Below are positions 11,862 to 40,376 of a stretch of DNA of 64,000 nucleotides, one piece after another (the stretch's first letter is position 1; every line of letters starts with the position of its first letter). The notes beneath the pieces were generated by a model, which worked only from the letters and a program-made list of their open reading frames with translations, was not told the DNA's origin and ran no database searches. The stretch is from a virus, in the IMG/VR virus record IMGVR_UViG_3300002448_000002, positions 1,569 through 65,568 of that record, one strand, 5' to 3'. Made by a program: the position numbers and the translations under genes.

Positions 11862-11893
11862 CCCCATCGTCGTCCCCGTTGCGCGTTGACCCC

Positions 11894-11910
11894 GGCAGGG
11901 GAGGGCTGAG
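11894..11910 (+). repeat. Dispersed motif GGCAGGGGAGGGCTGAG, copy 1
   Basis: CGGCAGGGGAGGGCTGAG at 11893-11910 is identical to 40359-40376; its 17-bp core is the exact reverse complement of 13921-13937. Confidence 0.85.
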
Positions 11911-12121
11911 AGGTTCGTCCGCCCTCTCGTCCTGCCATAGCAGGCGTCCACCCGCTAAGTGATTGATTCCTCGTGGATCCACGGCACATGAGGAATCCCC
12001 GAAGATCCACGGTGGTGAAGGAACCGCGTGCATACGCGCGCGTAGGGCACCTCCAAGTGATTGATCTTCCAGGTGGAAAATCCCGGTGTCTTCCCGGTTT
12101 GACAAGCGTGCCAGCGCAGTT

Positions 12122-12141
12122 CAAACTCGCTAGCGAGTTTG
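12122..12141. promoter_or_regulatory. Perfect 20-bp palindrome CAAACTCGCTAGCGAGTTTG, candidate operator
   Basis: Self-complementary; begins 17 bp after TTGACA (12099-12104), so it overlaps the expected -10 position upstream of the 12161 gene. Confidence 0.5.
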
Positions 12142-12160
12142 GCACACATGGGAGACGGAG

Positions 12161-12541
12161 ATGGACCTGAGATTGACGAACAACGGTCTGAGCTGGAGCA
12201 ACAGATCGGGCAATTGCGGCGTTCGCGCAATCGCGAACTACGCGGGCATTGATTACGCCGAGGCGAGGAAGATGGTCAAGCAGGTCGTCAGCATCGGGCT
12301 GGTCAATCGTCGCGGGATGTTGCGGGAAGAGATCGACAAGGTAGCCGACAAGCTCGGTCTCGAGCCCGTTCGTCTCCTGGAACGAGGCACGCTGGAACAG
12401 CACGCTGAGTTCCTGGGAGACGGCTTGTATTCGATTGAAAACCCGCCCCACCTGACGTCAGTGGTGGACGGAGTGTCAGTCGATAATCACGATTACCGAG
12501 GCTGTGTAGCGAAGGTCGCGTACCTGCCCAAGGTGGCATAG
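12161..12541 (+). CDS. Hypothetical protein, possible papain-like (C39-like) fold
   Basis: NCGVRAIA ... PHLTSVVDGVSVD gives Cys-His-Asp in the expected order; GGAG RBS. Confidence 0.45.
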   Translation: MDLRLTNNGLSWSNRSGNCGVRAIANYAGIDYAEARKMVKQVVSIGLVNRRGMLREEIDKVADKLGLEPVRLLERGTLEQHAEFLGDGLYSIENPPHLTSVVDGVSVDNHDYRGCVAKVAYLPKVA

Positions 12542-12543
12542 TC

Positions 12544-12945
12544 ATGAGCGCACGAAACGCAATGCAGGGGATGAAGTGGATCCGCAACGAGCGTCGGTTG
12601 GCCATCTACCTGCGAGATGGCCTGGCGTGCGTGTATTGCGGGGACACGGTCGAGGATGGCGCGAAGCTGACGCTGGACCATCTGAAGCCGAACAGTCGCG
12701 GGGGCACAAACGACACGACGAATCTCGTCACATGCTGCCACCGTTGCAACAGCAGTCGAGGCAATCGCAACGTTCGCGAATTCACGCGGTCCGTTGCCAA
12801 TTACCTGAATCACGGGATCGACGCTGAGGCCATCGAACGCCACGTCCGCAATTGCGCGCGACGTGTGATCGACACGGCCGAGGCGAAGATGCTGATCGCA
12901 CGCCGGGGCGGGTTCGTCGCGGCGCTCAAGGGAGACACGAAATGA
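12544..12945 (+). CDS. HNH endonuclease
   Basis: RDGLACVYCG, LTLDHLKP.SRGG.N...NLVTCCHRCNSSRG. Confidence 0.92.
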   Translation: MSARNAMQGMKWIRNERRLAIYLRDGLACVYCGDTVEDGAKLTLDHLKPNSRGGTNDTTNLVTCCHRCNSSRGNRNVREFTRSVANYLNHGIDAEAIERHVRNCARRVIDTAEAKMLIARRGGFVAALKGDTK

Positions 12946-13265
12946 TCAACGTACCGAACAACGCGATGGACTACATCAACTCATGCGCGAAGCCTGACAC
13001 CATCGGGAATGACTACACCATTGTCGAATTGAGCGAGTTCAACGACTTCCTGTCAGGCGTCGAATCGCTCACGGTCTTCGGTTCACACGTCGCAGCGGCG
13101 AAGTACGCGATTTATCAGGCGCACGAGTACGCGGACATGTCGGACGACGAGATCAACGAAGTCATGAGGGATTCGATGTACGAGTCCTACCCGGGTGAGC
13201 ACATTCGCGGGCCGGAAGACGTATTTGAGCCGCACATGCCCACAGACTCGGGCCTGGTGTACTGA
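12942..13265 (+). CDS. Hypothetical acidic protein
   Basis: ATGA coupling with the HNH gene, GGAG RBS. Confidence 0.55.
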   Translation: MINVPNNAMDYINSCAKPDTIGNDYTIVELSEFNDFLSGVESLTVFGSHVAAAKYAIYQAHEYADMSDDEINEVMRDSMYESYPGEHIRGPEDVFEPHMPTDSGLVY

Positions 13266-13287
13266 GCGACGCAAACGGAGACATCTG

Positions 13288-13698
13288 ATGCCGAAAGCGA
13301 TTGGTTTCACCGGGGTGCAATTCGTGCCCCGTTCATCCGCATTGGCGGCCCTGCAAAACATGCTGCTCGAGTTTCGCAGTCAGGGGTTCGACGAGTTTCA
13401 CCACGGTGATTGCGTGGGGGCCGACGCGGCCGCGCACAAGCGTGCAATACGCGCAGGGTTCGTCGTTCACATTCACCCGCCGACCGATACGTCGAGGCGT
13501 GCGTTCAGCGAGGGTGCGGCATACGTCCACGAACCCTGGAAGTATTTGATCCGCAATCGACATATCGCGAAGGCTTGCGACGTGTTGATCGCGATGCCCG
13601 TGGACCCGAATCGCGAGGTGAGGCGGTCCGGTGAATGGGCGACGGTTCGATACGCGCGGGAGTACGGCAAGCGCGTGGTGTTCATTGCAGCGGACTGA
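13288..13698 (+). CDS. SLOG-superfamily (DprA/YspA-like) nucleotide-binding protein
   Basis: IGFTG, HHGDCVGAD, LIRNRHIA..CDVLIA.P, RSGEWATVRYA...GK. Confidence 0.7.
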   Translation: MPKAIGFTGVQFVPRSSALAALQNMLLEFRSQGFDEFHHGDCVGADAAAHKRAIRAGFVVHIHPPTDTSRRAFSEGAAYVHEPWKYLIRNRHIAKACDVLIAMPVDPNREVRRSGEWATVRYAREYGKRVVFIAAD

Positions 13699-13723
13699 CA
13701 CCCCGCAACTGTAGCAACCCTCA

Positions 13724-13761
13724 GACGCGGCAGGTCCTCCCCTGCCGCGTCTTCCAACTTT
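13724..13761 (+). terminator. GC-rich hairpin after the SLOG gene, probable terminator
   Basis: GACGCGGCAGG / CCTGCCGCGTC 11-bp perfect stem with a 6-nt loop, followed by TTCCAACTTT. Confidence 0.55.
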
Positions 13762-13781
13762 ACCCCCGTTCCCCACTCCGC

Positions 13782-13790
13782 TGTTACAAT
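13782..13790 (+). promoter_or_regulatory. Extended -10 promoter element TGTTACAAT
   Basis: TGn + TACAAT in the intergenic region upstream of the TerS-like gene; followed by an 11-bp hairpin at 13803-13827. Confidence 0.45.
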
Positions 13791-13847
13791 CGCGCGTCAC
13801 GGCGCCCCTGAGAGGGTCTCAGGGGCGGATAACGGAGACGACAGGGA

Positions 13848-14420
13848 ATGGCGAAGTCCCCCGCAACGCGAACCCGCACCCGCAAGGCTGCACCCAGCAA
13901 AAAGGCCCCGGCAAAGGGGGCTCAGCCCTCCCCTGCCCCCAAGAAGAAGACCACTACTCCTACACGCAAACGGCTGAGCGTGCGGGAGGGGTATCGTCAG
14001 CGCAACGGAGAGTGTAGCCTCGATCTGGTCGAGGGGCTGGTGTTCAAGCTGCGACAGGGCATACCCGTAGACCGCGCCTGTGACCTGATTGGTCTGCATC
14101 GTTCGAAGTACACTACGTGGTGCAAATGGGGTGAGGACTACCTTGAAGCCCCCGACGACGAAGTGGCGCAGATGTCGAAGGAGGACCGGGACAAGGGCGA
14201 GATTTACGCCTACCTGTACATCGCCACCAAGTCCGCCATTGCGGAGCATCTTGAGTCCATAATCAGCGGCGAATTGAACTCGACGTCTGGGCTATGGAAG
14301 AAGGGACTTTCGATACTTGAACGACGGGACGCCCACAATTGGGCTAGAGTGAGATCACGTCATATTGGTATCGGGGATGAGCTTGGTGATCAGTTCACTC
14401 CAGATCCTACCTTCCTGTAG
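13848..14420 (+). CDS. Terminase small subunit-like HTH protein
   Basis: LRQGIPVDRACDLIGLHRSKYTTW HTH and WKKGLSILERRD..NW, typical of HTH-type TerS; basic low-complexity N-terminus; lies before the portal. Confidence 0.62.
   Translation: MAKSPATRTRTRKAAPSKKAPAKGAQPSPAPKKKTTTPTRKRLSVREGYRQRNGECSLDLVEGLVFKLRQGIPVDRACDLIGLHRSKYTTWCKWGEDYLEAPDDEVAQMSKEDRDKGEIYAYLYIATKSAIAEHLESIISGELNSTSGLWKKGLSILERRDAHNWARVRSRHIGIGDELGDQFTPDPTFL
13921..13937 (-). repeat. Dispersed motif, inverted copy inside the TerS-like ORF
   Basis: CTCAGCCCTCCCCTGCC is the reverse complement of 11894-11910. Confidence 0.8.
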
Positions 14421-14425
14421 CAGTC

Positions 14426-15019
14426 ATGTACGGTCGTCCATCAGCGCAGCCACTGGCACCCCACCTCTCACCCAAGTACCGCAGAAGGCGCCGACGTGCT
14501 CGCCTTAGTTTCTTCAATCAGCAACAAACCAAACAGTTTCGTGAACGTTGGCGTAATCGTTCCTGCATTGTCGGCTCTTGGTTGTTGGTCAATCGAAAAT
14601 TGAACTTCTCATGGTTCCCCGCACGAGTGATTGAAGTGACACATGACTTCGACCCTCGCATTGTGTGGTACTTCGGGGACACTCCTCCTAGGTGCCCACG
14701 CCATATGGTGCATTTGGAGCAGCACGCAGTGAAGACGCGTGGGACTTACCTCATGCGCGAATTGCAGACGATGCCTACGTCCACATATGCGGTGCTTCCT
14801 AGGTGGATGGACTTGAGTGGTTTGCTGAACGTCTTGGGTAGGCAGTTCACTGGTTGGACATCGTTGAGAGGAGCTATGCAGGAACTTGAGGTTCTTTGTG
14901 ATCCTTACAAGTGGTATTGGAACAAGAAACGTCGCCTGCTTCTTGATCGCATAGAGCGGGTGTATCCACGAATCGAATCAGGAGGTGAACGAGATGCCGG
15001 TACAAGACAGAAATCCTGA
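14426..15019 (+). CDS. Hypothetical protein
   Basis: 197-aa ORF filling the gap between the TerS-like gene and the portal; no motif recognised. Confidence 0.45.
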   Translation: MYGRPSAQPLAPHLSPKYRRRRRRARLSFFNQQQTKQFRERWRNRSCIVGSWLLVNRKLNFSWFPARVIEVTHDFDPRIVWYFGDTPPRCPRHMVHLEQHAVKTRGTYLMRELQTMPTSTYAVLPRWMDLSGLLNVLGRQFTGWTSLRGAMQELEVLCDPYKWYWNKKRRLLLDRIERVYPRIESGGERDAGTRQKS

Positions 15020-16481
15020 ATACGTGCAGAACGAAAGCAAGTGGCTGAAGTGTCGCGTATGTGCGGAAGGGGAGGAGGCCGTCAAGGCATCGGGACCAGT
15101 GTTCCTGCCGCTGCTTGAGGCGCAGGACGAGAGTGAGTACAACGCCTACAAGACGCGTGCCAGTTTCTTCGCAGGCACGTCCCGCGCAATCGCAGCACTC
15201 GTCGGCATGCTTTTCAAGAAGCCTCCAAGGGTGGAGGGATCCACCGAGGACTTGGACGAGGTACTGAAAACAGTTACAGAGGACAAGACGGACCTCCTGA
15301 CCTTCGTCAAGCACATAACGGAGGAGGTGGTTACGGTAGGCCGTACATGTGTGGTGGTAGACGTTGCTTCGGACGTGCCTTCTGCTTCCCCGTACCTCAC
15401 CTCCTACACAGCGGAGCAGGTGATCAACTGGAAGACCGAAATAAAGGAAGACGGCTCCCGCGGTGTTTCGCTGTTGGTCATCTATGAAACACACTCAGAA
15501 CCCGAGGATGAGTTTTCACACGACACGGTTCCGCAGATTCGGGTTCTTGGTCTTGAGGAAGGCAAGTACTACGTTCGTTTGTATCGGGAACGAGAAAGGC
15601 CGGACCCGAAGAATCCTGACGGACCTCCCATCGTTGAGTGGGTTTTGGAGGAAACGTTGTATCCAGTAGTGCGCGGTCAGCGTCTGACCTTCATCCCCGC
15701 GGTAATCATCGGTGTTATGGACACTGCCCCTGACGTGGAGAAGCCTCCTCTGTTGGACGTGGCGGAAGTGAACCTGAGTCTGTATCGCACATCCGCGGAC
15801 CTTGAGCATGGAAGGCACTTCACAGCCTTGCCTACCGCATACGTGGCAGGGGACGTGGACGAGGACAGGCATTCCAAGGGACTGAAACTTGGGTCCACGT
15901 CGATTATCAAATTGGAAGCGGGAGGCACGGCCGGCTTCCTGGAGTTCACAGGTCAAGGACTTTCCTCACTCGAAAAGGCGACCACGGACAAGAAGGAAGA
16001 GATGGCTGTTCTTGGTGCTCGCATATTGCTGAGCGACCCAAGCTTTCAGGAGGCATCCGAGACACTTCGCATTCGCAAGTTGGGTGAAGGTTCAATCGCA
16101 GCTTCCATTGCCAATACGGTAGGGGTGGGGATGACACAGGCCCTCCGATGGTGGCAGATGTGGCATCAGGCGCGCGAAACGCTGGAGATGAATCTCAATA
16201 CGGAGTTCGTGGAAGTTGCTCTCGACGCCACACTGTTGCAGAATCTCATGGCGGCTGTGATGCAGAAGCAGTTGTCTTGGGAGAGCTTCTTTTACAACGT
16301 CAAGAAGAGTGAATTGGTGCCTGAGGAACGCACTCTGGAGGAAGAGATTGAGTTGATCAACAGCGGTGGTCCAAATCCTCTTGATGGTGCCGAAGAAGAT
16401 CCCGAGGATGACGACCCCGAGGATGATCCTGAAGACGATGATCCGGAGGACGACCCCGAAGATGACCCAGATAACGAATAG
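14994..16481 (+). CDS. Portal protein (DUF4055-type)
   Basis: E..Y.AYK.RA.F, YTAEQVINW, KPPLLDVAEVNLSLYR.SAD..HG.HFTALPT, GFLEFTGQGL; acidic EDDP-repeat tail; GGAGG RBS. Confidence 0.88.
   Translation: MPVQDRNPEYVQNESKWLKCRVCAEGEEAVKASGPVFLPLLEAQDESEYNAYKTRASFFAGTSRAIAALVGMLFKKPPRVEGSTEDLDEVLKTVTEDKTDLLTFVKHITEEVVTVGRTCVVVDVASDVPSASPYLTSYTAEQVINWKTEIKEDGSRGVSLLVIYETHSEPEDEFSHDTVPQIRVLGLEEGKYYVRLYRERERPDPKNPDGPPIVEWVLEETLYPVVRGQRLTFIPAVIIGVMDTAPDVEKPPLLDVAEVNLSLYRTSADLEHGRHFTALPTAYVAGDVDEDRHSKGLKLGSTSIIKLEAGGTAGFLEFTGQGLSSLEKATTDKKEEMAVLGARILLSDPSFQEASETLRIRKLGEGSIAASIANTVGVGMTQALRWWQMWHQARETLEMNLNTEFVEVALDATLLQNLMAAVMQKQLSWESFFYNVKKSELVPEERTLEEEIELINSGGPNPLDGAEEDPEDDDPEDDPEDDDPEDDPEDDPDNE
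16398..16478 (+). repeat. Acidic (EDDP/EDDDP)n coding repeat at the portal C-terminus
   Basis: Translation EDPEDDDPEDDPEDDDPEDDPEDDPDNE. Confidence 0.8.
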
Positions 16482-16534
16482 CACCACGACGGCGGTATAG
16501 ACGTTTCGTAAGCTCGCACTGAGAGGGGTACGTC

Positions 16535-17296
16535 ATGCCGTCGCAAAAAATGTTCTTCGATATCACTCCGCACACCAACCACTGTGGTATCAGTTTGGTG
16601 GTGGAGAGGGTGCAAGATGACGAGGTAGAGATGGTGGAGTCTTGTACCGTCTGGATGGCCAGTGCCGCCAATATGGACAAGGCTCTGAAGAAGGTTAGGG
16701 TGATGTGCGAAGATGCGTCAGTTCGTATCAACTCGCGCATACAGGATGAGCAGGACTTGCGCGAGCATGCAAAGACCATCATCCCAGAGGAAGCCGAAGC
16801 CGACCAGCCCGAGCGCAGGAAGAGGTTGAGCACCACGCAGAAGAAGCTCCGTCAGCAGCGCACGCTCGGGCGAATGCTCAAGGACGCCCTGAACCTGAGC
16901 AGATACTGCTTCGACGACAGCCACTCGGATGTATTGGCGGCCCTTGCAGCGGAGCTTTGCACCGAACCCAATAAGGGATACGAGTTGCTCATGGCGGCCG
17001 CCGGCAAGTATCGGGAGGACTTTCAGGTACCTCCTGGTGGTGGGCCTCCTGGTGCGGACAGAGCATTTATCAAGTACACGGACGACGAAGTGAACGAGGT
17101 GCTGAAGAACGTGCCCATGCTTCGCGCGGTGTATCTGATAAACGAGCATCTCATGCTGAGTGGTGACAAGCTGGCGGACACCCGCGCGGAGGCATTGGCA
17201 GAGTTCGCCAGAATCACCGCCTCCAAGATCGAGGGTGTGGAGGCCATACATTTGCTCAGTCAGGCGATCACGAAGCTCATTCATCGGGAGGCATGA
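16535..17296 (+). CDS. Hypothetical protein
   Basis: 253-aa helical ORF with a GAGGGG RBS. Confidence 0.6.
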   Translation: MPSQKMFFDITPHTNHCGISLVVERVQDDEVEMVESCTVWMASAANMDKALKKVRVMCEDASVRINSRIQDEQDLREHAKTIIPEEAEADQPERRKRLSTTQKKLRQQRTLGRMLKDALNLSRYCFDDSHSDVLAALAAELCTEPNKGYELLMAAAGKYREDFQVPPGGGPPGADRAFIKYTDDEVNEVLKNVPMLRAVYLINEHLMLSGDKLADTRAEALAEFARITASKIEGVEAIHLLSQAITKLIHREA

Positions 17297-17299
17297 ATC

Positions 17300-17638
17300 G
17301 TGGATTTGGTAGACGACAAGGGTCATGGTCGCATGAACGAGGATCTCCGTAGATTGTTCCTGGCGGAGGGGTGCAATCCTGCGTGCCATATCTGCGGTGA
17401 GTTGATACCCGTTATGGCATCGTTCGCTTTGGTACCGGCGTGGGAGGTGTGCGACAAGGAGGGTATCGATCACAAGGTTGAGATTATGGTGTGCTGGTCT
17501 TGCAGGGAAAGACCAGTTCCTCACAACCAGGTGATGGCAGCGCAGCAGAAGTTGAAGAACAAACTGGGCAAGAAACACCCCGAGTATACGCCTCCCAGCA
17601 GAGGAGCCTTCGTGGTGGACGGGCGCATAGTAACGTGA
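17300..17638 (+). CDS. Hypothetical protein with putative Zn-binding Cys pairs
   Basis: CHIC and CWSC pairs. Confidence 0.55.
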   Translation: MDLVDDKGHGRMNEDLRRLFLAEGCNPACHICGELIPVMASFALVPAWEVCDKEGIDHKVEIMVCWSCRERPVPHNQVMAAQQKLKNKLGKKHPEYTPPSRGAFVVDGRIVT

Positions 17639-17952
17639 TTGTCGTTAGGGTAGAGTTGCACAGTGCTATGACAGGCAAGGTGACTCTGCTCGCCAAGACG
17701 ATCATCAGCAACAAGCGTCTTCGGGACATGCGAGGTCAGCGTGCTGATTACAGCGTTCGAGTGGGACGTAAGGGGAGGCTTGAGAACCAGCAGGTCCTCC
17801 GCAGTCCCCTGCGCTGGGGCATCGTCACAGACTACCCACGCGAGGCGTTGAATGTGTGGAGGTTGGTCATACGAGCTCTGCTGGCCGCGTTTCCCGAGGA
17901 GGCACCACCGAAGAAGAAACGACGGTTGGTACCAAAGGCACATCTCGACTAG
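17635..17952 (+). CDS. Hypothetical phage protein
   Basis: GTGA-coupled start; VELHSA.TG, YPR..LNVWRLV.RAL. Confidence 0.55.
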   Translation: MIVVRVELHSAMTGKVTLLAKTIISNKRLRDMRGQRADYSVRVGRKGRLENQQVLRSPLRWGIVTDYPREALNVWRLVIRALLAAFPEEAPPKKKRRLVPKAHLD

Positions 17953-17964
17953 AGGGAGTGGAAG

Positions 17965-18234
17965 ATGACTTACAGCACTTATCAGTACAGCAGGCAGGCG
18001 ATGCACGATCATGCGCTTGGTTTCAGCGCCCCGGCAACCGACTACCAGCGCAAGAACATGAAGATGCTTGGATTGTCGGCCGCTCTCAGACCGACTCTGA
18101 CCGTTGGTGAGGCGGCGCGGTTGATCAATCAGGCGTACGCGCAACGTCGCACGCAGGACAGGAAGACGGAGGTGGTTGGTGACCGCGTGCGAATGGAGAA
18201 GCTCGCAAGAGCCATGAATCGAGCCACGGCGTAA
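17965..18234 (+). CDS. Hypothetical protein
   Basis: GAGGGAG RBS; coupled to the next gene. Confidence 0.55.
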   Translation: MTYSTYQYSRQAMHDHALGFSAPATDYQRKNMKMLGLSAALRPTLTVGEAARLINQAYAQRRTQDRKTEVVGDRVRMEKLARAMNRATA

Positions 18235-18545
18235 TGGCCGGGTCGCTGTTCAAGCACGGACCACCCGTGGAGATGGACCTCCCGGATCGAGCCACGCGGG
18301 AATCCCCATTGCAAGGGTTCCCCGCGAACTACGACGAGTGGGTGGCTCAAGCAATCATGCGGGATAACGCAAAGGACTTCCCGCACACGGAGCCTTTCAG
18401 GGAAGTGCCTGGTAGCCCTTGTATGTGCAAGGGCTGTGGCAAGAAGGCGCATATCCTGTGCGGTTCTAGGTGGAAGTGCACATGCGGAGAAACCAACGAG
18501 ATCCCGGTCACATGGGATCATGAAAACAGGAGGGTGGTGAAATGA
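18234..18545 (+). CDS. Hypothetical Zn-ribbon protein
   Basis: CMCKGC and CTCG cluster; coupled to both neighbours. Confidence 0.55.
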   Translation: MAGSLFKHGPPVEMDLPDRATRESPLQGFPANYDEWVAQAIMRDNAKDFPHTEPFREVPGSPCMCKGCGKKAHILCGSRWKCTCGETNEIPVTWDHENRRVVK

Positions 18546-18742
18546 CAGTGTGGATGCCTTCGTGCGGGATTATCGCACCCACCAAGACTCACAAGTGCCG
18601 CAAGAGCCCGAGGACGGCACAGCAGCACGCGAAGATTCGCGCCAAGAGGCGTCTGAGGCGGAAGACGCGTTTCATCCCCTCGAGTCAGAGGGGCAAGGAA
18701 ATGCTTCGCATTCGTCTGCTCGAGGCGGCGAATCGGACGTGA
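18542..18742 (+). CDS. Small basic hypothetical protein
   Basis: ATGA/GTGA coupling on both sides. Confidence 0.45.
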   Translation: MTVWMPSCGIIAPTKTHKCRKSPRTAQQHAKIRAKRRLRRKTRFIPSSQRGKEMLRIRLLEAANRT

Positions 18743-18948
18743 ACGTCCGGAAGGCATTGGAGACCACCGCCACCATCATTGGTGGCGTATTGGTCTGGGG
18801 CGGTTTTCTCGCAATCATCGGGGCGATTGCGTGGGGAATCGCAGCTCTCACCTCGTGGTGGTTTGTGGCGGGTGCTGGAGGGGTATTAGTCGTGGTATTC
18901 GTCGCGTGGCTGTCATTCGTGATTCAAATGGGGAGGAACTGGGGATGA
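18739..18948 (+). CDS. Small membrane protein with two TM helices
   Basis: Two hydrophobic stretches; GTG start overlaps the upstream stop. Confidence 0.55.
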   Translation: MNVRKALETTATIIGGVLVWGGFLAIIGAIAWGIAALTSWWFVAGAGGVLVVVFVAWLSFVIQMGRNWG

Positions 18949-19538
18949 TCGTGTATGACGTGGAAATCGAGCAGGCGATTCTGGGCAAGAACGAGGAACG
19001 TCTGCCGGACATTCGCTACTGTGATGGCTGGAGGGATTTCGAGGGCATGGGCATCTCCGTGATCTGTGCATACGATTCCAAGACGGAACGCTATCACGCA
19101 TTCACGAGAGGCAACTTCGACGACTTCCAGTCGTTGGTGCTCAACGACCCGTTGATCGTCAGCTTCAACGGCCTGCAGTTCGACGACAAGCTCTGCGCCT
19201 CGCAGGGGATGAAGGTCACCACGACCTATGACATCCTCAAGGAAGCGTGGGTATCGGACGGTCACCCGCCGACGTATGAAAGCGAGAAGCAGATGGGCTA
19301 CGGGCTGGACGACTTCGCCAAGGCGATGGGCCTCCAGGGCAAGGTGGGGCATGGCGCGCAGGCTCCCATCGACTGGCAGAGAGGCCGGTACGGACGGGTG
19401 ATCACGTACTGCCTGGAGGACGTTCGGCTGACGTGGAAGCTTGCGTGCTGGATTCGCATGACAGGGAGCCTGCCCAATCCTAGGGCTCCGGGACACAATC
19501 TGTTCCTGCCGCCACTGTCCGGGTTGAATCCCGCGTGA
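18945..19538 (+). CDS. RNase H-like / DEDD 3'-5' exonuclease (YprB/PolB-exo-like)
   Basis: VYDVEI, VSFNGLQFD, YDIL, GLDDFA, YCLEDVRLT (ExoI-III acidic motifs). Confidence 0.8.
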   Translation: MIVYDVEIEQAILGKNEERLPDIRYCDGWRDFEGMGISVICAYDSKTERYHAFTRGNFDDFQSLVLNDPLIVSFNGLQFDDKLCASQGMKVTTTYDILKEAWVSDGHPPTYESEKQMGYGLDDFAKAMGLQGKVGHGAQAPIDWQRGRYGRVITYCLEDVRLTWKLACWIRMTGSLPNPRAPGHNLFLPPLSGLNPA

Positions 19539-19711
19539 ACTTTCGGAAGCTCTTTGTCACCAGGTGCCGGGAGGCCGGGATACGCTATTACCTGGATCCC
19601 GGCACCTGGGAGTGGTACCGCGCGTACATTTGGTGCTTCCCTTGCACGCTCAAGCGTTGGGCTCCCCGAGTGTATGAATGGTGGTGGAGGAGGAAGGTGA
19701 GACATGTTTGA
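19535..19711 (+). CDS. Small Trp-rich hypothetical protein (58 aa, below the ORF-track cutoff)
   Basis: GTG at 19535 overlaps the upstream stop; translation MNFRKLFVTRCREAGIRYYLDPGTWEWYRAYIWCFPCTLKRWAPRVYEWWWRRKVRHV; fills the gap. Confidence 0.45.
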   Translation: MNFRKLFVTRCREAGIRYYLDPGTWEWYRAYIWCFPCTLKRWAPRVYEWWWRRKVRHV

Positions 19712-20042
19712 ATACGAATGGTCGACTCTAGACGAGGATCCCGGACCGTTTGACAGGCTTCAATGGCCCTCCTGGCTCCACGCCGCAGCAGAGAAGGTGG
19801 AGATGGTTCCAGCCAAGGGGAATCCAAAGAAGCTCGTAAGGCGTATCCCAGAGGGAGCGTTCTTTCGAGACGATGCCGCCTTGGACGTATGGCCACGCAT
19901 TCGTTTTGAGAAAGGCGAACCATATTGTATTCGCTGGTGGCTGCGAACAGCGAAGGGCGATATTGAGGTGTGGTCCGGAGACATCCTTGTGTGGTGCGCT
20001 GATGGAAGCATCTACATCAAGCGGAAGCCGGAGAGGACATGA
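19704..20042 (+). CDS. Hypothetical protein
   Basis: GGAGG RBS; coupled to the next gene. Confidence 0.55.
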   Translation: MFEYEWSTLDEDPGPFDRLQWPSWLHAAAEKVEMVPAKGNPKKLVRRIPEGAFFRDDAALDVWPRIRFEKGEPYCIRWWLRTAKGDIEVWSGDILVWCADGSIYIKRKPERT

Positions 20043-20266
20043 GCACATTCGGTGAGCTAGTCGCAATGATACTCGTAGTAGCGATTGGCATACGGGTGTC
20101 CAACATTCGTCGTCGCGTGCAGCACCTCAAGGACGTATGGAAGGACGCCCCGCCTGCATTTCACGATCCGCACAAGATGATGGTCATTATCTTCATAGTG
20201 GCCGGATTCGAAGTGCTACTAGCGTGGGTGGTGCTTAGTTTCGCCATGACGTTCGCAAACTGGTAA
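20039..20266 (+). CDS. Small membrane protein with two TM helices
   Basis: Two hydrophobic segments; ATGA coupling. Confidence 0.55.
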   Translation: MSTFGELVAMILVVAIGIRVSNIRRRVQHLKDVWKDAPPAFHDPHKMMVIIFIVAGFEVLLAWVVLSFAMTFANW

Positions 20267-20270
20267 TCCG

Positions 20271-20301
20271 CATTCCCCCTAAAGGGGAATGGTGGTACAC
20301 T
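20271..20301 (+). promoter_or_regulatory. Hairpin followed by extended -10 TGGTACACT
   Basis: CATTCCCC/GGGGAATG 8-bp stem at 20271-20291, then TGn-TACACT at 20293-20301. Confidence 0.4.
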
Positions 20302-20330
20302 GTAGTCGGCAAACGAGGATCCATGGAGCC

Positions 20331-21209
20331 ATGAAGACGACAATCACTATAGCAGGTAGCCTAGTGTCCGTAGAGGTAGACAGCGGACATCGAGTTCCAG
20401 ACATGGGGTACGAGGCACCTTGGAGGCCACCATCGTTCCGCTTCGAGAAGGCACCACAGCCGGACACCTGGAAGGCACTGTCGGAGATGGGACTCCGGGC
20501 GTACGAGGCCATACAGAAGAAGGAAGAGGCGCGGAGGCTGGACATCGGGGATTGGTTGGCTCCCAAGGAATGGGTTGTGCTATTGAAGCACGACCACAAG
20601 GAATGGATGGTTCGTGCGCTACGGGACTGTCAGTCCGAGGCAGGATGCTTGGGACCTAAATCCGAGCTTGTGAAGTGTGCAGAGAGGATACTGGGTACGA
20701 GCAGCGTGTCTTTCGATGCCAAGTCCATGGACACCCTAGAGTTCGTCCACGAGGTAGAACTAGGACGCTTCGAGACATGGACGTTCGAATGGATTGGGCA
20801 TGTGTGGCAGCTGAAGACGTACAAGATGGACTCCATACAAAACACGCACGCACGCGAGGACGAGGACGAGGATTGGAAGTGGGAGGAGGCAAAGGACATC
20901 CCTGGCACCTTGGAAAGAACAGCGGAGACTTTCACTGTAGGACTGTCCGAGTTCAATGAAGCCGAGGCGCTTCGCAATCCTCCCGTTGACATGCAAGGAA
21001 GCTGTGCGCTGGTGGACGTCGCGAGAGGCGTCCTGCCAAGGAAGGTCCAAGAAGGGGACATCTTGGTATTCGTGGACACCCGCTTGATGGTGGAGGGCAT
21101 GGTGCCTTACGATCCCATCGCCTACATGTACAACGAAACGACCAAGGTGTGGTCTAGAAGCAAGCTACCACAGGAAGAGTCAGAGTCCTACGGAGGTACC
21201 GCAGTATAG
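20331..21209 (+). CDS. Hypothetical protein
   Basis: Long ORF; ATG at 20331 with a GGAG RBS. Confidence 0.6.
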   Translation: MKTTITIAGSLVSVEVDSGHRVPDMGYEAPWRPPSFRFEKAPQPDTWKALSEMGLRAYEAIQKKEEARRLDIGDWLAPKEWVVLLKHDHKEWMVRALRDCQSEAGCLGPKSELVKCAERILGTSSVSFDAKSMDTLEFVHEVELGRFETWTFEWIGHVWQLKTYKMDSIQNTHAREDEDEDWKWEEAKDIPGTLERTAETFTVGLSEFNEAEALRNPPVDMQGSCALVDVARGVLPRKVQEGDILVFVDTRLMVEGMVPYDPIAYMYNETTKVWSRSKLPQEESESYGGTAV

Positions 21210-21323
21210 TAGAACGGTGTTCAGCCACATAGGGCACTTGTATGAGTGTTCGGCGGAAGCACTGGGGGATCATCATCCTTTGGGTGATGCTCATTTTGTT
21301 GGTGACATTGGGAGGAGGATAAG

Positions 21324-21827
21324 ATGAAAAGCAAGTGGTGGATAGTTGGAGCGCTTCTGGTCGTAGGCGTGTTGTCGTTCGGGGCGGCATACGTCTTCGC
21401 AGAGGAGGAGGACAATACGCCTATCATCCTTACCATTCCGATAGGACCCGAGGTGTCGCTTAACAGCCTGCATTGTGACAGCGTGTCCAACATGAAGATG
21501 CACATGGACAACCACGGGTTCCTTGAGATCGTCCGCACGGGCACCGGACAGTTCGCACCTGGCGCTCTCAGCTTCTTCCAGACTCCCAAGAGCGGAGGAT
21601 GGGTGATCATGTCCGGAGTGCCAGGCAGATCTGACCGGGTGTGTTTGATGGGCTACGGCGGCTACAACAAGCTGACCATTCATTTCGACAACGTTCGAGT
21701 GTTGGAGGCGATGGATCCTCCCGAGTGGAATCCAGCCGGTCTTACGACCGAGGAGGAACGCCTCCGGCAGGAACTTGAGAAGGAAATGCGGCGTCTGTTG
21801 GAAGAGGCAGCCGCAGAAGATGAGTGA
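21324..21827 (+). CDS. Secreted/periplasmic hypothetical protein
   Basis: Signal peptide MKSKWWIVGALLVVGVLSFGAAYVFA|EEE; GGAGGAGG RBS. Confidence 0.6.
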   Translation: MKSKWWIVGALLVVGVLSFGAAYVFAEEEDNTPIILTIPIGPEVSLNSLHCDSVSNMKMHMDNHGFLEIVRTGTGQFAPGALSFFQTPKSGGWVIMSGVPGRSDRVCLMGYGGYNKLTIHFDNVRVLEAMDPPEWNPAGLTTEEERLRQELEKEMRRLLEEAAAEDE

Positions 21828-21919
21828 CCCCGCGCCCTCGATTGCGCCGTGAGTGAGCGGCGCGCTACCGCACCGTATCGGGCCGGTGTATGGGGTGGCG
21901 CCCAAATCGAAAGCGCTAG

Positions 21920-21975: not shown

Positions 21976-21998
21976 ACAGGCAATCAGGAGCTAGTGAG

Positions 21999-22367: not shown

Positions 22368-22368
22368 C

Positions 22369-23114: not shown

Positions 23115-23116
23115 TG

Positions 23117-35075: not shown

Positions 35076-35115
35076 TTGGACGATTTCTTCAGGTTTGTCC
35101 CAAGGAGCTTAGCAG

Positions 35116-35421
35116 ATGAAAACACTCGAAGTGCTATGGCCCGACGAGTTCGGCGAAGACGTGGTGACGATCAACGAGTCCGACTTCGATTCGAGCATCC
35201 ACGAGCTGGTCGACGGCGGCGGCAAGGGTTCGGTGGAAGAGGCGGTGTACGCCGAGATTCAGTCCATGTCCGAGGCCGACCCCGACAAGGCGAACGACGA
35301 CTGGTGGAGGAAGGACGGCTACCCGGAGCTCAAGGAACTCCGCAATCGTCTGCCCGACATCTCGGTGACCGACGCGCTGCGCAGCGATCAGTACGAGCGT
35401 TACGAGGCAGGCAACACCTGA
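35116..35421 (+). CDS. Small acidic head-associated protein
   Basis: AAGGAG RBS; WWRKDGYPELKELR motif; post-capsid position. Confidence 0.6.
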   Translation: MKTLEVLWPDEFGEDVVTINESDFDSSIHELVDGGGKGSVEEAVYAEIQSMSEADPDKANDDWWRKDGYPELKELRNRLPDISVTDALRSDQYERYEAGNT

Positions 35422-35747
35422 TGAACACGGAGTCCAAGGACAAGGCCAGCGGGGCAATCGTCTCGCTGGCCGAACGCCAGAACCCGAAGCCGAACGACAA
35501 CGTAGTTCGGCGTTTGGAGCTCATCCTTGAGGAAGCCCGAGCAGGGAAGATTCAGGGATTTGGAATGGTTTGTTGTCAAAGAGGTGCGGTTGATTCTTGT
35601 TACTGGATTGTGGGAAACTTTGATTCCTGGTATAACGTGATAGGCGCTTGCAGGGTGATGTCTCAAGAGTTTGAACGCGAGGCGATGCAAGGTACGGTGT
35701 TTATGGACCCGGACGCCGACAAGCCGGAAAACGAGGAGGATGAGTGA
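35421..35747 (+). CDS. Hypothetical protein
   Basis: TGATG coupling; VRRLE.ILEEARAGKIQG. Confidence 0.55.
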   Translation: MNTESKDKASGAIVSLAERQNPKPNDNVVRRLELILEEARAGKIQGFGMVCCQRGAVDSCYWIVGNFDSWYNVIGACRVMSQEFEREAMQGTVFMDPDADKPENEEDE

Positions 35748-36277
35748 TGCCTTTGGACACCACAGTAGGCGGGCCGCGCTCGAACTCCTACCTCACCGTC
35801 GAAGAGGCGGATGAGTACCACGCGACTCGTTTGCACAATTCGGGGTGGGCGTCGGCCGACGCAGCAGACAAGGAAAAGGCTCTTATCTGGGCCACGCGAA
35901 TGTTGGACAATGGTGTGCGCTTCGTCGGACGCCGCTACGGGTTATACCAAGAACAAGCTCTGCAGTGGCCAAGAAATTCGGCGACGGATCGCGAGGGATT
36001 CTACATAGAGTACAATGTGATTCCCCGGCAGGTGAAGGAGGCCACTGCGGAGCTTGCCTGGCTGCTTCTTGCAAGGGATCGCACCGCAGCCGAGTCAGGT
36101 GACAGCACGCAAGCAATTCGAAGCGTGGCGGTGGGTCCGATTCGGCTGGGCTTCTCTGAGGACAGGGAAAAGGTGCGCGAGACAAGGGAGGAGCCCATCC
36201 CCGCCACTGTGGTGGATCTGTTGCAAGGTCTGGGCACGTTGGTAGGGAAGACGCCTCTTAGGGTGGTACGGACATGA
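35747..36277 (+). CDS. Head-tail adaptor (DnaT-like / gp15-like)
   Basis: NSYLTVEEADEY, KEKALIWAT..LD, QALQWPR, IP.QVKEATAELA. Confidence 0.8.
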   Translation: MPLDTTVGGPRSNSYLTVEEADEYHATRLHNSGWASADAADKEKALIWATRMLDNGVRFVGRRYGLYQEQALQWPRNSATDREGFYIEYNVIPRQVKEATAELAWLLLARDRTAAESGDSTQAIRSVAVGPIRLGFSEDREKVRETREEPIPATVVDLLQGLGTLVGKTPLRVVRT

Positions 36278-36690
36278 GCATCAACCTGCCCGAAGTACAA
36301 GGATTGGTCCAAACGGTCCAAACGTCCGTTGCCTCGGCGTTCGAGCTCCTCGTGGACTTTCAGCAGAGCATCACCATAGAGCGGTATCAGCAGGCTGAGT
36401 CCAAGAACTACAATCCAGCGACTGGAGCTTTGGCGCAGTACGCTCCTGCGCGGGAGGTGGTGGTTGGGTTGGTGCTTGACTACGAGGCCAGCAAGGTGGA
36501 CGAGGAAATCATTCTTCGTACCGACCAGCAGGTTCTCATAGAACGGTCCAAGGTGAACGTGTCGGGTAATGGGGAAATCAGCACGCGGGATCGTTTGCGT
36601 GTAGGGACGTCCCTGCTGAAGATTGTGGATGTGTCCGTGGACCCGGCCGGGGCTCTTTACACCCTGCAAGTTCGAGAAGGTAGCGGCTGA
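36274..36690 (+). CDS. Head closure (gp16-like) protein
   Basis: Y.PATG, D...L, D.L......I..V..DPAGALY.LQVR; synteny. Confidence 0.72.
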   Translation: MSINLPEVQGLVQTVQTSVASAFELLVDFQQSITIERYQQAESKNYNPATGALAQYAPAREVVVGLVLDYEASKVDEEIILRTDQQVLIERSKVNVSGNGEISTRDRLRVGTSLLKIVDVSVDPAGALYTLQVREGSG

Positions 36691-37151
36691 TGCCTGACGA
36701 GCGCGCACTGAGGCGATTCGAGGCCGACCTGGAGGCATTCGCAAACCGACTGGACGTGGGTGTAGGGGTTGTCACTCAACGTGTGGCACTTCAGGTGTTC
36801 ACGGGTGTGGTTCAGAAAACCCCTGTAGACACAGGTCGTGCCAAGTCCAACTGGGGTATCAACGTAGGCGCTCCGTCACCTCCTCCTTCGCACGCCATGA
36901 CAGAGGAGGAATCGAAGAGCCGACGTAAAGCCGGTAACAAGGCGAACGCCGCTTCGGAGGATGCAAAGGCTCTGGCGTACGCTTCTGCTGAGTTGGGTAG
37001 TGTGGACGGCAGCGACGCGGTGCACATAACGAACAACCTCCCGTACATCCAGGCATTGAACGATGGTCACTCGGACCAGGCACCGAAGGGGTTTGTGGAA
37101 GACACCGTCGCAGAAGTAGCACAGGTGATTCAGGAGATCATAACCGAATGA
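36690..37151 (+). CDS. HK97 gp10-like neck/tail-completion protein
   Basis: TPVDTGRAKSNW, HITNNLPYI..LNDGHS.QAP.GFV. Confidence 0.85.
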   Translation: MPDERALRRFEADLEAFANRLDVGVGVVTQRVALQVFTGVVQKTPVDTGRAKSNWGINVGAPSPPPSHAMTEEESKSRRKAGNKANAASEDAKALAYASAELGSVDGSDAVHITNNLPYIQALNDGHSDQAPKGFVEDTVAEVAQVIQEIITE

Positions 37152-38005
37152 GCTTCGAGGCCGAACGTGCTGCTATAGAAGGATGGTTCCACGACCGGTG
37201 GGAACGATTCTTCGCTGCGGACGCTTATTGGGATGGATACCCCTTAGGTGCCCCTACAGTGCGCGCAGACTGTCGCGTGGCGTATGACAACGTTCAGTTC
37301 ACAGCCCCGACGCCCGACCAGGACAACCCGCAAGAAACCGTGTGGGTGCGTCTCACGATACTGCCAGCGGGGGCCTCACAGATTACTCTTGGGGACAACC
37401 CGATACGTCAGCACAACGGGGTGATCTCGGTCCAGATCTTTCATCCCGAAAACGCCAAGGCGAATTGCATTCGGCGCGTGGCGGACATTGTGTCCGCTAT
37501 CCTCGACTTGCAGTCTATTGCACTTACGGATGTGTCTGGGTTTGTACAGTGCCGACGTTCGAATCTGCGAAGGATTGGTCCCGAGAACGGTTGGTACCAA
37601 GTCAACGTGGATACCGTTTATGTACGTCAAAACAGTGCTGGTGTTTCTGGTGCTTTGTCTCTTGCATACGGACTGGTGAATGAGGATCTGGATGACTTTG
37701 TAGTGGGTGCCGGCTCTCCTGTAGGGGTTACATTGGCGTCTCCTGCAAGAATCGTTTTCCCCGTAACTACGGAGGACCATCCCAGGTTCTGGTTTGAGCC
37801 TCCGACTGGATTGGCATTTGGAGCGGTGTACAACATTGCTATAGAACGCACTCTGGGAACATTCGACCACACATGGGTCCCATTCAATCCGAAAGATGAC
37901 ATGGGCGCATTCAACGAAGATAGGGTTGTGTTTCACAGCAAAAGGTACCATGCGGGTGTGGTATACATAGCCGCCATCCATCACCTGTTTGAGATAGAGC
38001 AATGA
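37148..38005 (+). CDS. Tail terminator (gp17-like) with C-terminal extension
   Basis: VAYDN, WVRLTI, G.I.VQIF.P, WYQVNV; about 125 extra residues follow. Confidence 0.72.
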   Translation: MSFEAERAAIEGWFHDRWERFFAADAYWDGYPLGAPTVRADCRVAYDNVQFTAPTPDQDNPQETVWVRLTILPAGASQITLGDNPIRQHNGVISVQIFHPENAKANCIRRVADIVSAILDLQSIALTDVSGFVQCRRSNLRRIGPENGWYQVNVDTVYVRQNSAGVSGALSLAYGLVNEDLDDFVVGAGSPVGVTLASPARIVFPVTTEDHPRFWFEPPTGLAFGAVYNIAIERTLGTFDHTWVPFNPKDDMGAFNEDRVVFHSKRYHAGVVYIAAIHHLFEIEQ

Positions 38006-39144
38006 GCGCACGTCTTTACTACGCGATAGAGACCTCTTTCAGGTCTGGCATAGCGCGCGGGGCCTTGCCTGATACGGGTACGGAGACCGACGACACTCAG
38101 CGTGACTTGGTGCTCAGGGGACGCGCACTTCCTGGAATAACCAACAGTGTAAGGATTGAATATGAGGAGGAGGAATCAGCCGAGGTAGCCACTAGTGCAG
38201 GTCGAGGGCCTCTACAGCCACCTACGAAGATTAACGCCAGGCAGGTTGGTCAGGTATCTTTGGGTCTGAGAAACTTGGGACGTTTGCTGCAGAGTGTTCT
38301 ATGGAGTCAACCGAGTCCTGCAAGTCAAGGTTTGGGTATTCCAGTAGTGGATGCGGTGATTGAGGATGATGGACCTTTCATCCGTAACGGATCACACCGA
38401 AGAAGTCTTCTTTTGGTTAGGCAGGACGACGATGGCAGCCATCCACCTGCAAACACGGCATTGCAAGTTTTCAAGGGGGTGGTAATTGATGACCTGTCTT
38501 TCAGTCATACAACACGTCTCAGCACCGTCGGCGAACTAGGTGTTTGCACGTTTGGTTTCATTTGCACGGACTACGAGGCAGGCAGTGGTCGACGATACCC
38601 GGAGGACTTTTCGTCGGAAGGACTTGAAGATGATCGTCACTTTCACGAATTGAGCGCAGGTGCTGAAGTAGTGCTATCAAACCTTACTAACTTGAGGGTA
38701 GGGAATTACTTGTCAGGAGGGGAGGACAAGCACGTTTTCGTAGATTGCTTCTTTCGCAATTCTGTTCGTCCAAAATACGGACTGGGATCTTTATTCCCAT
38801 TTGATATCGCATTGTCGCAAACCCCGTTTTCTTGTGGAGGTACTCTAGGCATAGTTCTTGACCAAGACACGCAAGGAACCATCCGCGCTTTGCTGTCTGA
38901 TTTTGAGTCCAATGAGAGTCTGGGAGGTTTCCCATTGTCTTTCAATTTGGAACAAACTATATCCCCCAAAGATGGGTACAAATTCACATTCCCGTCCGTG
39001 TCCATTACCAAGGCACGAATGGTGGAACCTCCGGGAGGAGGTTCGGGAGGATCCAACGCTCCCTCTCAGTTGGAGGTGGAATGGTATTCCACTGGCACGG
39101 AAGACGGGGAAGCAATTCTTATTCAAAGATTGCAACAGACCTAA
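38002..39144 (+). CDS. Divergent tail-tube paralog
   Basis: Same motif order as the next gene: YAIET.F.., EES.E, KGVVIDDLSFS, FRNSVRP...LGS, GGTL, YKFTFPSV. Confidence 0.55.
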   Translation: MSARLYYAIETSFRSGIARGALPDTGTETDDTQRDLVLRGRALPGITNSVRIEYEEEESAEVATSAGRGPLQPPTKINARQVGQVSLGLRNLGRLLQSVLWSQPSPASQGLGIPVVDAVIEDDGPFIRNGSHRRSLLLVRQDDDGSHPPANTALQVFKGVVIDDLSFSHTTRLSTVGELGVCTFGFICTDYEAGSGRRYPEDFSSEGLEDDRHFHELSAGAEVVLSNLTNLRVGNYLSGGEDKHVFVDCFFRNSVRPKYGLGSLFPFDIALSQTPFSCGGTLGIVLDQDTQGTIRALLSDFESNESLGGFPLSFNLEQTISPKDGYKFTFPSVSITKARMVEPPGGGSGGSNAPSQLEVEWYSTGTEDGEAILIQRLQQT

Positions 39145-39159
39145 ACGGAGGATGAAGTA

Positions 39160-40347
39160 ATGAGCGAAGCCAACCAAGTTGAAATCTCATACCAGGCAGA
39201 GGCCGCTGGGCAGTTCGGAATCGCCGTACCTGAAAACGCCAAGCGCGAGCTTCGGTACAACTCCGAATCGCTCGTTGCAAACATCAACGACGAAGACAGC
39301 CCGGAGATCAGCTCCGACAGGCAGTTCTTCGACGTGATTCCGCTGGGTTCGTCCTTCGGTGGCGACATCCCCACGTCTCTGTCACATGGGAACCTGGACG
39401 ACCTCCTGCCCAGCGCGTTCTTCAACCCATGGACGGATATCAGCATTTCAGGTGACGCGAATCTAGCTGTCGCCGCAGGTGTGTACACAGACACGGCCTC
39501 TGGGTTTGGCGCACTCAAGGTAGGGGACAGAGTAAGAACGGAAGGGTTTCCTGCCGCTGCAAATGCGAATGGGTGGAAAACAGTCACTGCTGTGGCTGAC
39601 GATGGTTCTACGGTGACACTTTCACCGCCTGGACCTAACACCGCCGCTGGTAATGGCAGGTCGATAAAGTCTTCCAATCTCAAGAACGGAAAGACACGTC
39701 ATTCCTTTTCCATCGAGAAGAAGTTCTCTGCACTCGACCCACTGATTCAGCACAACTACATCGGCTGCTTGGTGCAGGGGATGGCGATGGAGTTCCGAGC
39801 AGGCGCTTCGGTCACGGCGAATCTCACAGTGTCCGCGCAGAAGCATGCACAGGTGAGTGGGCCAAACGCGGCTGTATTCAATCCCATGCGAACGCCGGCT
39901 CCGAAGAACCTCATCTTTTCACCGGCGGACACGAAGGGTTTGCAGGTAGGACCGGCCGATTCGTTGCATGTTCCCGACACCGTGGTGCTTTCGGCGATCA
40001 CCATGAACTTGGGCAACAACCTCCGGTCGCTACAGCAGCTCGGGACGCTGGACATCGGGGACATTCGTCCGGGTCGCTTCAGCGTGGAAGGTTCGTTGGA
40101 AATGTATTTCTCCGACGGTGGCTTGTACGACCGGTTCCTTGCAAGGCAGGAAACGGAAGTGTCGTGGCGTACGGTGGAGCCGAACAGCGACAACATCTAC
40201 TACTTCGACATGCCGCGGGTACGTGTTCGCAACGCGCGTATCGTGGCCGGAGGCGTAGACACGGACCTGACGGCCCAGTTCGACTATCGTGCGCTGGGGC
40301 ATCGTACACGCGGTTATACGTTCATGATGACGAAGAATGCGGCGTAA
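39160..40347 (+). CDS. Major tail tube protein
   Basis: ELRYNSESL, SPEISSDRQ, GGDI, SFSIEKKF, GC.V..M, LGNNL, GRFSVEGSLEMYF.D..LY, YYFDMPRV. Confidence 0.85.
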   Translation: MSEANQVEISYQAEAAGQFGIAVPENAKRELRYNSESLVANINDEDSPEISSDRQFFDVIPLGSSFGGDIPTSLSHGNLDDLLPSAFFNPWTDISISGDANLAVAAGVYTDTASGFGALKVGDRVRTEGFPAAANANGWKTVTAVADDGSTVTLSPPGPNTAAGNGRSIKSSNLKNGKTRHSFSIEKKFSALDPLIQHNYIGCLVQGMAMEFRAGASVTANLTVSAQKHAQVSGPNAAVFNPMRTPAPKNLIFSPADTKGLQVGPADSLHVPDTVVLSAITMNLGNNLRSLQQLGTLDIGDIRPGRFSVEGSLEMYFSDGGLYDRFLARQETEVSWRTVEPNSDNIYYFDMPRVRVRNARIVAGGVDTDLTAQFDYRALGHRTRGYTFMMTKNAA

Positions 40348-40351
40348 GGCA

Positions 40352-40376
40352 GAACGCGCGGCAGGGGAGGGCTGAG
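40352..40376 (+). repeat. Dispersed motif copy GAACGCGCGGCAGGGGAGGGCTGAG
   Basis: Shares 19 bp with 30639-30657 and 18 bp with 11893-11910; followed by a CTGAG/CTCAG mini-hairpin. Confidence 0.85.

Follow-up and report, generated by a model that had tools for sequence, protein, structure and literature searches.

A short G-rich repeat dispersed at gene and domain boundaries of an uncultured sponge-associated phage

Introduction

Why does one short G-rich word recur across a phage genome, on either strand, at places where genes or protein segments meet? The question is raised by a 64,000-nt stretch of DNA (the window; bases 1569-65568 of the 66,041-nt IMG/VR virus contig IMGVR_UViG_3300002448_000002, estimated to be 75% complete), which belongs to an uncultured sponge-associated phage. 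An earlier note on this DNA had described five copies of the word and had considered a protein-binding site, an RNA signal and recombination handles as explanations. The window has a GC content of 55% and its + strand carries every credible gene; positions below are those of the window. Here we describe a family of seven copies, one of them at a break in gene order and another at the joint of a fused protein. We tentatively favor the reading that the word marks boundaries at the level of DNA, as a repeat confined to this phage lineage that offers identical patches where modules join.

Results

The repeat family and its anatomy

The window contains seven copies of a G-rich word of ~18-26 nt, which lie on both strands and are spread over 59 kb. 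Its core, GGCAGGGGAGG, is exact at 11894 (+), 13736 (-), 13927 (-), 30647 (+) and 40360 (+), and when up to one mismatch is allowed there are 11 matches against 1.74 expected, a count reached in 0 of 100 shuffles. A 17-mer, GGCAGGGGAGGGCTGAG, is present three times; in 60 dinucleotide shuffles no 17-mer occurred three times and no 14-mer more than twice. These core and 17-mer statistics rule out chance or composition as the source of the repeat, so that the family is real and the pairwise matches reported earlier do go beyond chance. Sub-words such as AGGGGAGG are also enriched on the coding strand, and their extra sites were set aside as ordinary coding sequence.

All five copies in the earlier note (here A, E, B, D and C, in order along the window) are found where it had placed them, but its count was too low: two further members were added, copy F at 61286-61304 (-), which matches copy A at 18 of 19 positions, and copy G at 2704-2729 (-), which matches copy A at 22 of 26. 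Among the original five, the match is complete between 13920-13937 and 40360-40377 (18/18) and between 30639-30657 and 40352-40370 (19/19), and nearly so between 13734-13754 and 30639-30659 (19/21) and between copies A and C (11893-11916 and 40359-40382; 23/24), which both run on to GGTTC. A position weight matrix gives the seven sites 22-32 bits, the next site 15.7 bits and a null maximum of ~19 bits, a separation that is partly circular since the matrix was trained on the seven copies themselves. A census of repeated words found the motif to be the sole repeat of the 66-kb contig that is dispersed; what else recurs is tandem protein repeats within the giant adhesin gene. The CTGAG-N5-CTCAG hairpin that the earlier note had pointed out at 13808 and 40372 is likewise beyond expectation (2 found, 0.10 expected).

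The motif is asymmetric and non-palindromic and consists of an optional left box, the core GGCAGGGGAGG and an optional GCTGAG-N-GGTTC. The left box is GAACGCGC, i.e. GAA(C/G)(G/A)CGC, in copies C, D and E and GTTGA(C/T)CC in copies A and G, and the right box is GCTGAG in copies A, B, C and F, CCTCAG in G and AC in D and E. The flanking boxes thus reassort among copies, which is what crossovers inside the core would produce. No longer duplicated segment accompanies the copies, and their immediate flanks share nothing. Copies A, D and C, on the + strand, and copy E, on the - strand, are intergenic, and the remaining - copies B, F and G are coding, the minus orientation being stop-free in all frames and translating as a harmless Pro/Ser/Ala linker. 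Because orientation is mixed and some copies are coding, the family points to an element that acts at the DNA level rather than at that of RNA or protein.

Seven copies at boundaries

Every one of the seven copies is at a boundary: four are in spacers that follow a stop codon, and three are in protein segments that vary (the N-terminal tail of TerS, a linker in an SbcD-like protein and a domain-fusion joint). Copies A, E, D and C follow the stop codons of the TerL, SLOG-like, lipoprotein-type and tail-tube genes at 5-36 nt, in keeping with the claim that four of the original five lie just past a stop codon; counted to the first base of the copies as they were first given, the distances are 32 nt (11861 to 11893), 36 nt (13698 to 13734), 23 nt (30616 to 30639) and 5 nt (40347 to 40352).

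Copy A (11885-11936, +; core 11894-11904, extended word 11885-11916) starts 24 nt past the TerL stop at 11861 and, together with a degenerate inverted copy at 11921-11936, can form an imperfect hairpin. Copy E (13729-13754, -) makes up the loop and 3' arm of a hairpin at 13723-13752, 25 nt past the SLOG-like stop at 13698, with a perfect 12-bp GC-rich stem (z -6.7; 0/200 shuffles). Downstream of it come TCTTCCAACTTT and then an extended -10 element, TGTTACAAT (13782-13790), ahead of terS. A further hairpin with CTGAG-N5-CTCAG and 11-bp arms (13803-13827, +; z -3.1) lies 20 nt upstream of the terS start; it has CTGAGAGG in common with copy A and the hairpin form in common with copy C.

Copy B (13920-13941, -) is inside terS (13848-14420), at codons 25-31 (AQPSPAP), and contains an 18-mer identical to one in copy C. 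Relatives' proteins at 66-100% identity come from ENA, NCBI and Logan contigs of 22-114 kb, and what is said here of motif conservation in relatives rests on such protein proxies. One 89.6-kb contig encodes both an identical TerS (P0121) and an identical copy of the 214-residue protein described below (P0129), a 98% TerS variant (P0126) comes from a 33-kb contig, and the ENA contigs of P0002-P0004 and P0123-P0124 are of ~98 kb each. The basic N-terminal tail of TerS in which copy B lies is missing in two homologues (51-52% identity) and altered in a third (these are P0122-P0124, at 49-52% identity), and a 98% identical TerS variant keeps it. Copy G, which has diverged (2703-2729, -; GTTGATCCC-GGCAGGGGACG-CCTCAG), lies in the SbcD-like gene 1831-2880 and encodes LRRPLPGST (residues 291-299), within a linker past the SbcD nuclease domain; the window phage and its 59% relative have a lineage-specific insertion of 5-7 residues there.

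Copy D (30639-30659, +) is in the 45-nt spacer between the lipoprotein-type stop at 30616 and the gene 30662-31255. Its sequence is that of hairpin E on the opposite strand, from the 5' arm through the loop but without the 3' arm, and its GGAGG is 4 nt before the ATG of the downstream gene, so that by its sequence it probably doubles as a ribosome-binding site. Copy C (40352-40386, +), 5 nt past the major tail (tube-type) gene 39160-40347 and before the tail chaperone gene at 40422, is the most complete copy and has the top matrix score, combining the left box GAACGCGC, the core, GCTGAG and a 5-bp CTGAG/CTCAG hairpin. Copy F (61286-61307, -; core GGCAGAGGAGG) is inside open reading frame (ORF) 60824-61468, where it encodes SQPSSAV.

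A break in gene order at copy A and a domain fusion at copy F

The TerL-portal region was compared with that of 11 IMG/VR relatives whose TerL is 45-54% identical. In 11 of 11, portal follows TerL directly, at 38-230 nt, and TerS is upstream of TerL in the six that have a TerS match; in one of the relatives (L309) the SLOG-like gene is upstream as well. The window instead has 3.1 kb between TerL and portal, made up of a spacer, four small genes, terS and one more gene, and TerL overlaps the upstream helicase gene by 88 nt. TerL thus appears, from this gene order, to have been relocated in this phage, and it is at copy A that the 3.1-kb block meets TerL.

The spacer that begins at the TerL stop (299 nt, 11862-12160) is structured. 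It has a perfect 20-bp palindrome at 12122-12141, just upstream of the gene at 12161, and other palindromes at 11972-11983 and 12033-12044; AAGTGATTGAT is repeated directly in it, at 11957 and 12055. The spacer may be an operator, an origin or a cos region.

The linker encoded by copy F joins an N-terminal domain to a C-terminal module of ~55 residues in the 214-residue protein of ORF 60824-61468. Two homologues of the N-domain (P0139 and P0140) end at the copy F point, a third protein (P0141) has this C-terminal module attached to an N-terminal part that is unrelated, and a protein from a Thiotrichales metagenome-assembled genome (P0132) is 87% identical through HSNMVEW and unrelated beyond. 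To judge from these alignments the 214-residue protein is visibly a domain fusion with its breakpoint at copy F. The Thiotrichales origin of P0132 is a possible clue to the host.

The inverted pair formed by copies A and B

The inverted pair that the earlier note had drawn around the terL-terS insert is perfect over its 17 nt (11894-11910 and 13921-13937), and such a pair might be where crossover inverts or excises a 2-kb cassette, as in a shufflon or a Gin/Hin switch. In a family of seven copies of mixed orientation, one bracketing inverted pair is unremarkable in itself, and the word is present five more times elsewhere. The right arm lies in terS codons 25-31, and inversion between 11910 and 13921 would part terS from its start and promoter and flip four genes to the other strand. 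Family scans of ~59 ORFs turned up no serine or tyrosine recombinase. The inversion proposed earlier is rejected because terS would be broken, and we regard a crossover-site role for the pair as most improbable.

RNA-level readings

The four copies 5-36 nt past stop codons might be thought to act on rightward transcripts as terminators, 3'-end stabilizers, processing sites or ribosome-loading sites. In favor of such a role are the strong hairpin at E with its promoter-like extended -10, the small hairpin on copy C, the GGAGG that copy D provides and the fact that the A and B RNAs, if co-transcribed, could pair along 17 nt without a mismatch. Every gene is on the + strand, however, while the copies lie on both (4 of 7 on the - strand), so that + copies yield G-rich RNA and - copies its C-rich complement, and the motif is therefore not one RNA element. 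In all seven copies the core pairs just as much when the flanks are shuffled, which led us to discard a general RNA hairpin family; the six copies other than E fold no better than shuffles do, leaving E as the sole significant hairpin, and the motif has no match in Rfam and no tRNA match. When 11500-14500 was scanned for terminators, none was predicted on the + strand at copies A and E, the tail of E being UUCCAACUUU, and a promoter scan of the same segment found none; the word itself has no -35 or -10, and the extended -10 elements are outside the repeat. A general RNA processing or stability signal, one of the suggestions made earlier, is accordingly disfavored, and we consider an RNA-level role for the family unlikely.

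A canonical intrinsic terminator, with a GC stem and eight T, is present at ~33723-33751, just upstream of ORF 33878-35026. Ordinary terminators are thus in use in the host, and the motif copies, at which the U-tract is absent, differ from them.

The arrangement at 13723-13790, in which a hairpin is followed by TCTTCCAACTTT and an extended -10 (TGTTACAAT) ahead of terS, recurs at 29259-29324 (TGGTATAGT) ahead of the lipoprotein-type gene, with an unrelated stem sequence, and the window has 15 matches to the pattern TGNTAYANT where 7.4 are expected. This phage therefore has composites of terminator and promoter at borders of cassettes. They are similar in form to the promoter-early stem-loops (PeSLs) of phages, which combine an early promoter with a terminator stem-loop (PMC4122927).

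Occurrence in other genomes

The 17-mer was scanned in IMG/VR and in a collection of 185,579 species genomes, in which the true host may not be represented. Among the matches listed, at least 12 IMG/VR contigs have one 17-mer match each, and in the species genomes each stretch with a match has one copy, none being multi-copy. A host-derived repeat was rejected on these single copies. Searches of IMG/VR and JGI with portal, TerL and tail-tube proteins gave relatives of up to 54% protein identity, and the motif was not found in ~2 Mb of the DNA of these distant relatives. Near TerL in the relatives with 45-54% TerL identity, analogous repeats were sought and none was above chance. Apparent repeats in L094 reflect codon bias and are no analogue, and a G-rich stretch past the tail-tube gene of Dinoroseobacter phage R26L is single-copy and was treated as coincidence.

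In themselves, short dispersed repeats are common across this broad phage group. R26L (L296/L297, PP882867.1) has nine copies of a near-palindromic AT-rich word, TATAACTCGCTTATA, which are intergenic, upstream of genes and often followed by a shared leader containing a ribosome-binding site; they are probably the promoter/operator set of R26L. A repeat of 15-19 nt (TAGTGCCAATGGCC...), which has a GCCA-N-TGGC dyad at its core and is dispersed over both strands, is common to the related IMG/VR phages L037 and L043; its copies in L037 are at 372-390, 2737-2751, 3699-3718 and 17290-17304.

The confinement of the word to one lineage is also what would be seen if the copies were functionless relics of a single duplicated terminator hairpin or short segment, spread by recent rearrangement and not yet decayed. 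Half-hairpin copies do exist (D compared with E), and the region is visibly rearranged. Against this, the seven copies are spread over 59 kb in differing contexts and still have 17-19 nt in perfect agreement between unrelated immediate flanks, with no longer duplicated segments alongside, and we think it improbable that they are relics.

A possible recognition word for a protein

A nearly invariant, sharp-edged core in seven copies, on both strands and in coding as well as non-coding DNA, could also be a word that a DNA-binding or DNA-cutting protein reads on double-stranded DNA whatever its orientation, and that is kept in spacers and linkers simply because a fixed 17 nt can be tolerated nowhere else. 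Candidate readers are TerS, either of two HNH endonucleases, a small XRE-type helix-turn-helix (HTH) protein or a host protein. Copies A, E and B cluster around terS, with E 112 nt upstream and B 72 nt downstream of its start, an arrangement that recalls pac or cosB sites, and HNH genes are within ~0.6-0.9 kb of copies A, E and D; the terS cluster and the nearby HNH genes are suggestive, no more. There is a Cro/C1-type HTH match at 27920-28159 that is weak and below the Pfam cut-off, and a weak HTH_17 match at 697-1359, in a contig that is ~75% complete. Dispersed repeats that serve as protein sites are moreover common in phages, the nine-copy word of R26L and the 15-19-nt repeats of L037 and L043 being examples.

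The motif, on the other hand, has no dyad symmetry and no consistent orientation or spacing, its copies number only seven, and no reader protein is tied to it. Its correlated, reassorting flanks resemble copied DNA more than independently selected sites. The copy F linker is not conserved in a 78-80% identical homologue (P0130), and copy B is lost in TerS homologues of ~50% identity. We hold a protein-recognition word to be nearly as likely as the boundary repeat, which we place only slightly ahead of it.

Readings of the motif as a G-quadruplex, Chi-like, Ter-like, iteron or integron attC element were dismissed as probable misfits in orientation, length, clustering or sequence.

Genome setting

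The gene layout comes from the protein-family scans, and all genes listed here are on the + strand. First come UvsX-like recombinase and RusA genes and the SbcD/SbcC-like nuclease genes (1831-4718; SbcD-like gene 1831-2880), followed by QueD/QueE, an exonuclease, a DnaB-like helicase and an SNF2 helicase (8893-10566), and then TerL (10479-11861). After TerL come the 299-nt spacer and four small genes, including an HNH gene (12544-12945) and the SLOG/DprA-like gene (13288-13698), and then TerS (13848-14420), a gene without an assigned role and portal (~14994-16481). Further along are scaffold (28248-29069), the lipoprotein-type gene (29357-30616), an accessory block with the second HNH gene (31514-32119) and ORF 33878-35026, presumed from synteny with R26L to be the major capsid gene. 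The tail genes follow, with the tube-type protein (39160-40347), chaperones (the first at 40422), tape measure and fibers.

The closest cultured phages are ~31% identical in portal and are the Vibrio SSP002-like phages and R26L; R26L and the window phage share a one-strand layout, Que genes and scattered head genes. The QueD-/QueE-like genes are at 4706-6107, as in R26L and Queuovirinae, and on sequence grounds suggest 7-deazaguanine modification of the phage DNA. The second HNH gene is of the homing type, with HNH_3 and a C-terminal HTH-like region; its GC content at third codon positions (GC3) is 0.465, far below that of its neighbors, and it looks recently acquired.

Discussion

The word persists, it would seem, only where sequence is unconstrained, in short post-stop spacers and in disordered protein tails and linkers. 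If it is a boundary repeat, it may have begun as a GC-rich hairpin of the terminator type after a gene, the two arms of which would be the + and - forms. Copies A and E would have kept both arms and the other five would be single arms left at joints; the strong hairpin at E, and the identity of D with one arm and loop of E, speak for such an origin. The identical patches of 17-19 bp at the ends of cassettes and domains could then serve as crossover points, and the phage has genes for a UvsX-like recombinase, an exonuclease, RusA and SbcCD, whose products might use them to join, swap or relocate modules. Some copies would have been co-opted, E as a terminator stem ahead of the terS promoter and D as a ribosome-binding site. 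The earlier suggestion of recombination handles at block boundaries holds up in part, given that copy A is at a break in synteny relative to 11 relatives, F is at a fusion breakpoint and B and G are in indel-prone tails or linkers, but most accessory-block boundaries have no copy.

That last observation weighs against the boundary repeat, as do several others. The breakpoint evidence is from protein comparison rather than from the DNA of close relatives; the TerL rearrangement has two other junctions, one near 10479-10566 and one near 14985-15019, and neither has a copy or remnant; and copy C is at a tail-tube/chaperone boundary where gene order is conserved in R26L. A protein site under purifying selection would also account for identity that is perfect over 17-19 nt and sharp-edged, and homologous recombination usually needs a stretch at least about as long as 17-26 nt, or longer, to be efficient. 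Composition does not change in a clear step where the copies lie, and shows only a somewhat higher GC3 in the A-E cassette, and hairpins other than E are not above chance.

A more elaborate version, for which we see little likelihood, is that the word is the address label of a phage-private cassette exchange, in which a phage protein, for example one of the two HNH endonucleases together with UvsX, RusA and SbcCD, would recognize or cut it, and genes or domains would be swapped in frame. By analogy, and no less speculatively, such a label might be a functional counterpart of PeSLs or of the attC sites of integrons, with the added ability to work within genes.

Sequence offers few clues to the mosaic build-up of tailed-phage genomes, one of them being short lineage-specific repeats, and here a single word marks gene joints, an intragenic domain-fusion joint and a relocated terminase gene. 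The observation is solid but small, comprising seven copies in one genome. Should the sites prove to be conserved base for base, the word would point to an unknown DNA-reading protein.

How does the motif compare with known systems? Repetitive extragenic palindromic (REP) sequences, bacterial interspersed mosaic elements (BIMEs) and the DNA uptake sequences (DUS/USS) that pair to form terminators occur in hundreds to thousands of copies per host chromosome. The phage word resembles them in being GC-rich and located past genes, in both orientations, with hairpins formed from adjacent inverted copies (A and E), but the scan of species genomes showed no stretch with more than one copy of the 17-mer among the matches listed. 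TerS recognition repeats, such as the R sites of lambda cosB, SPP1 pacL/pacR and the P22 pac inside terS, normally form one cluster. Like them, the word is asymmetric and of mixed orientation and flanks or enters the 5' part of terS (E and B, with A 1.9 kb upstream); unlike them, it has four of its seven copies 11-47 kb from terS, only three being within 2 kb of the terS start.

The stoperators of mycobacteriophage L5 and Cluster A are short asymmetric words that number ~24-30, oriented with transcription, often found in stop-start gaps and bound by a known repressor (gp71). The word described here is likewise a short asymmetric sequence dispersed genome-wide, often in short stop-start spaces, but its seven copies are divided between the strands (3 + and 4 -), three of them are coding, and the candidates for a repressor are limited to the two weak HTH matches.

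The closest parallel is with the PeSLs of T4-type phages, which are promoter-early stem-loop composites at the borders of accessory cassettes and proposed points of homologous exchange between unrelated modules (PMC2839356; PMC4122927). Like PeSLs, the word is a short repeat dispersed at accessory-cassette borders of a phage genome; unlike them, it is only 18-26 nt long, promoter-less, present on both strands and also inside genes, and copy E alone has a convincing stem-loop. PeSLs are longer than this word and co-oriented with transcription. As a boundary repeat the motif would be PeSL-like in role, not in form, and if exchanges prove to end in the word in relatives, the PeSL idea would extend to a distant group of siphophages, to much shorter sequences and to the in-frame shuffling of protein domains.

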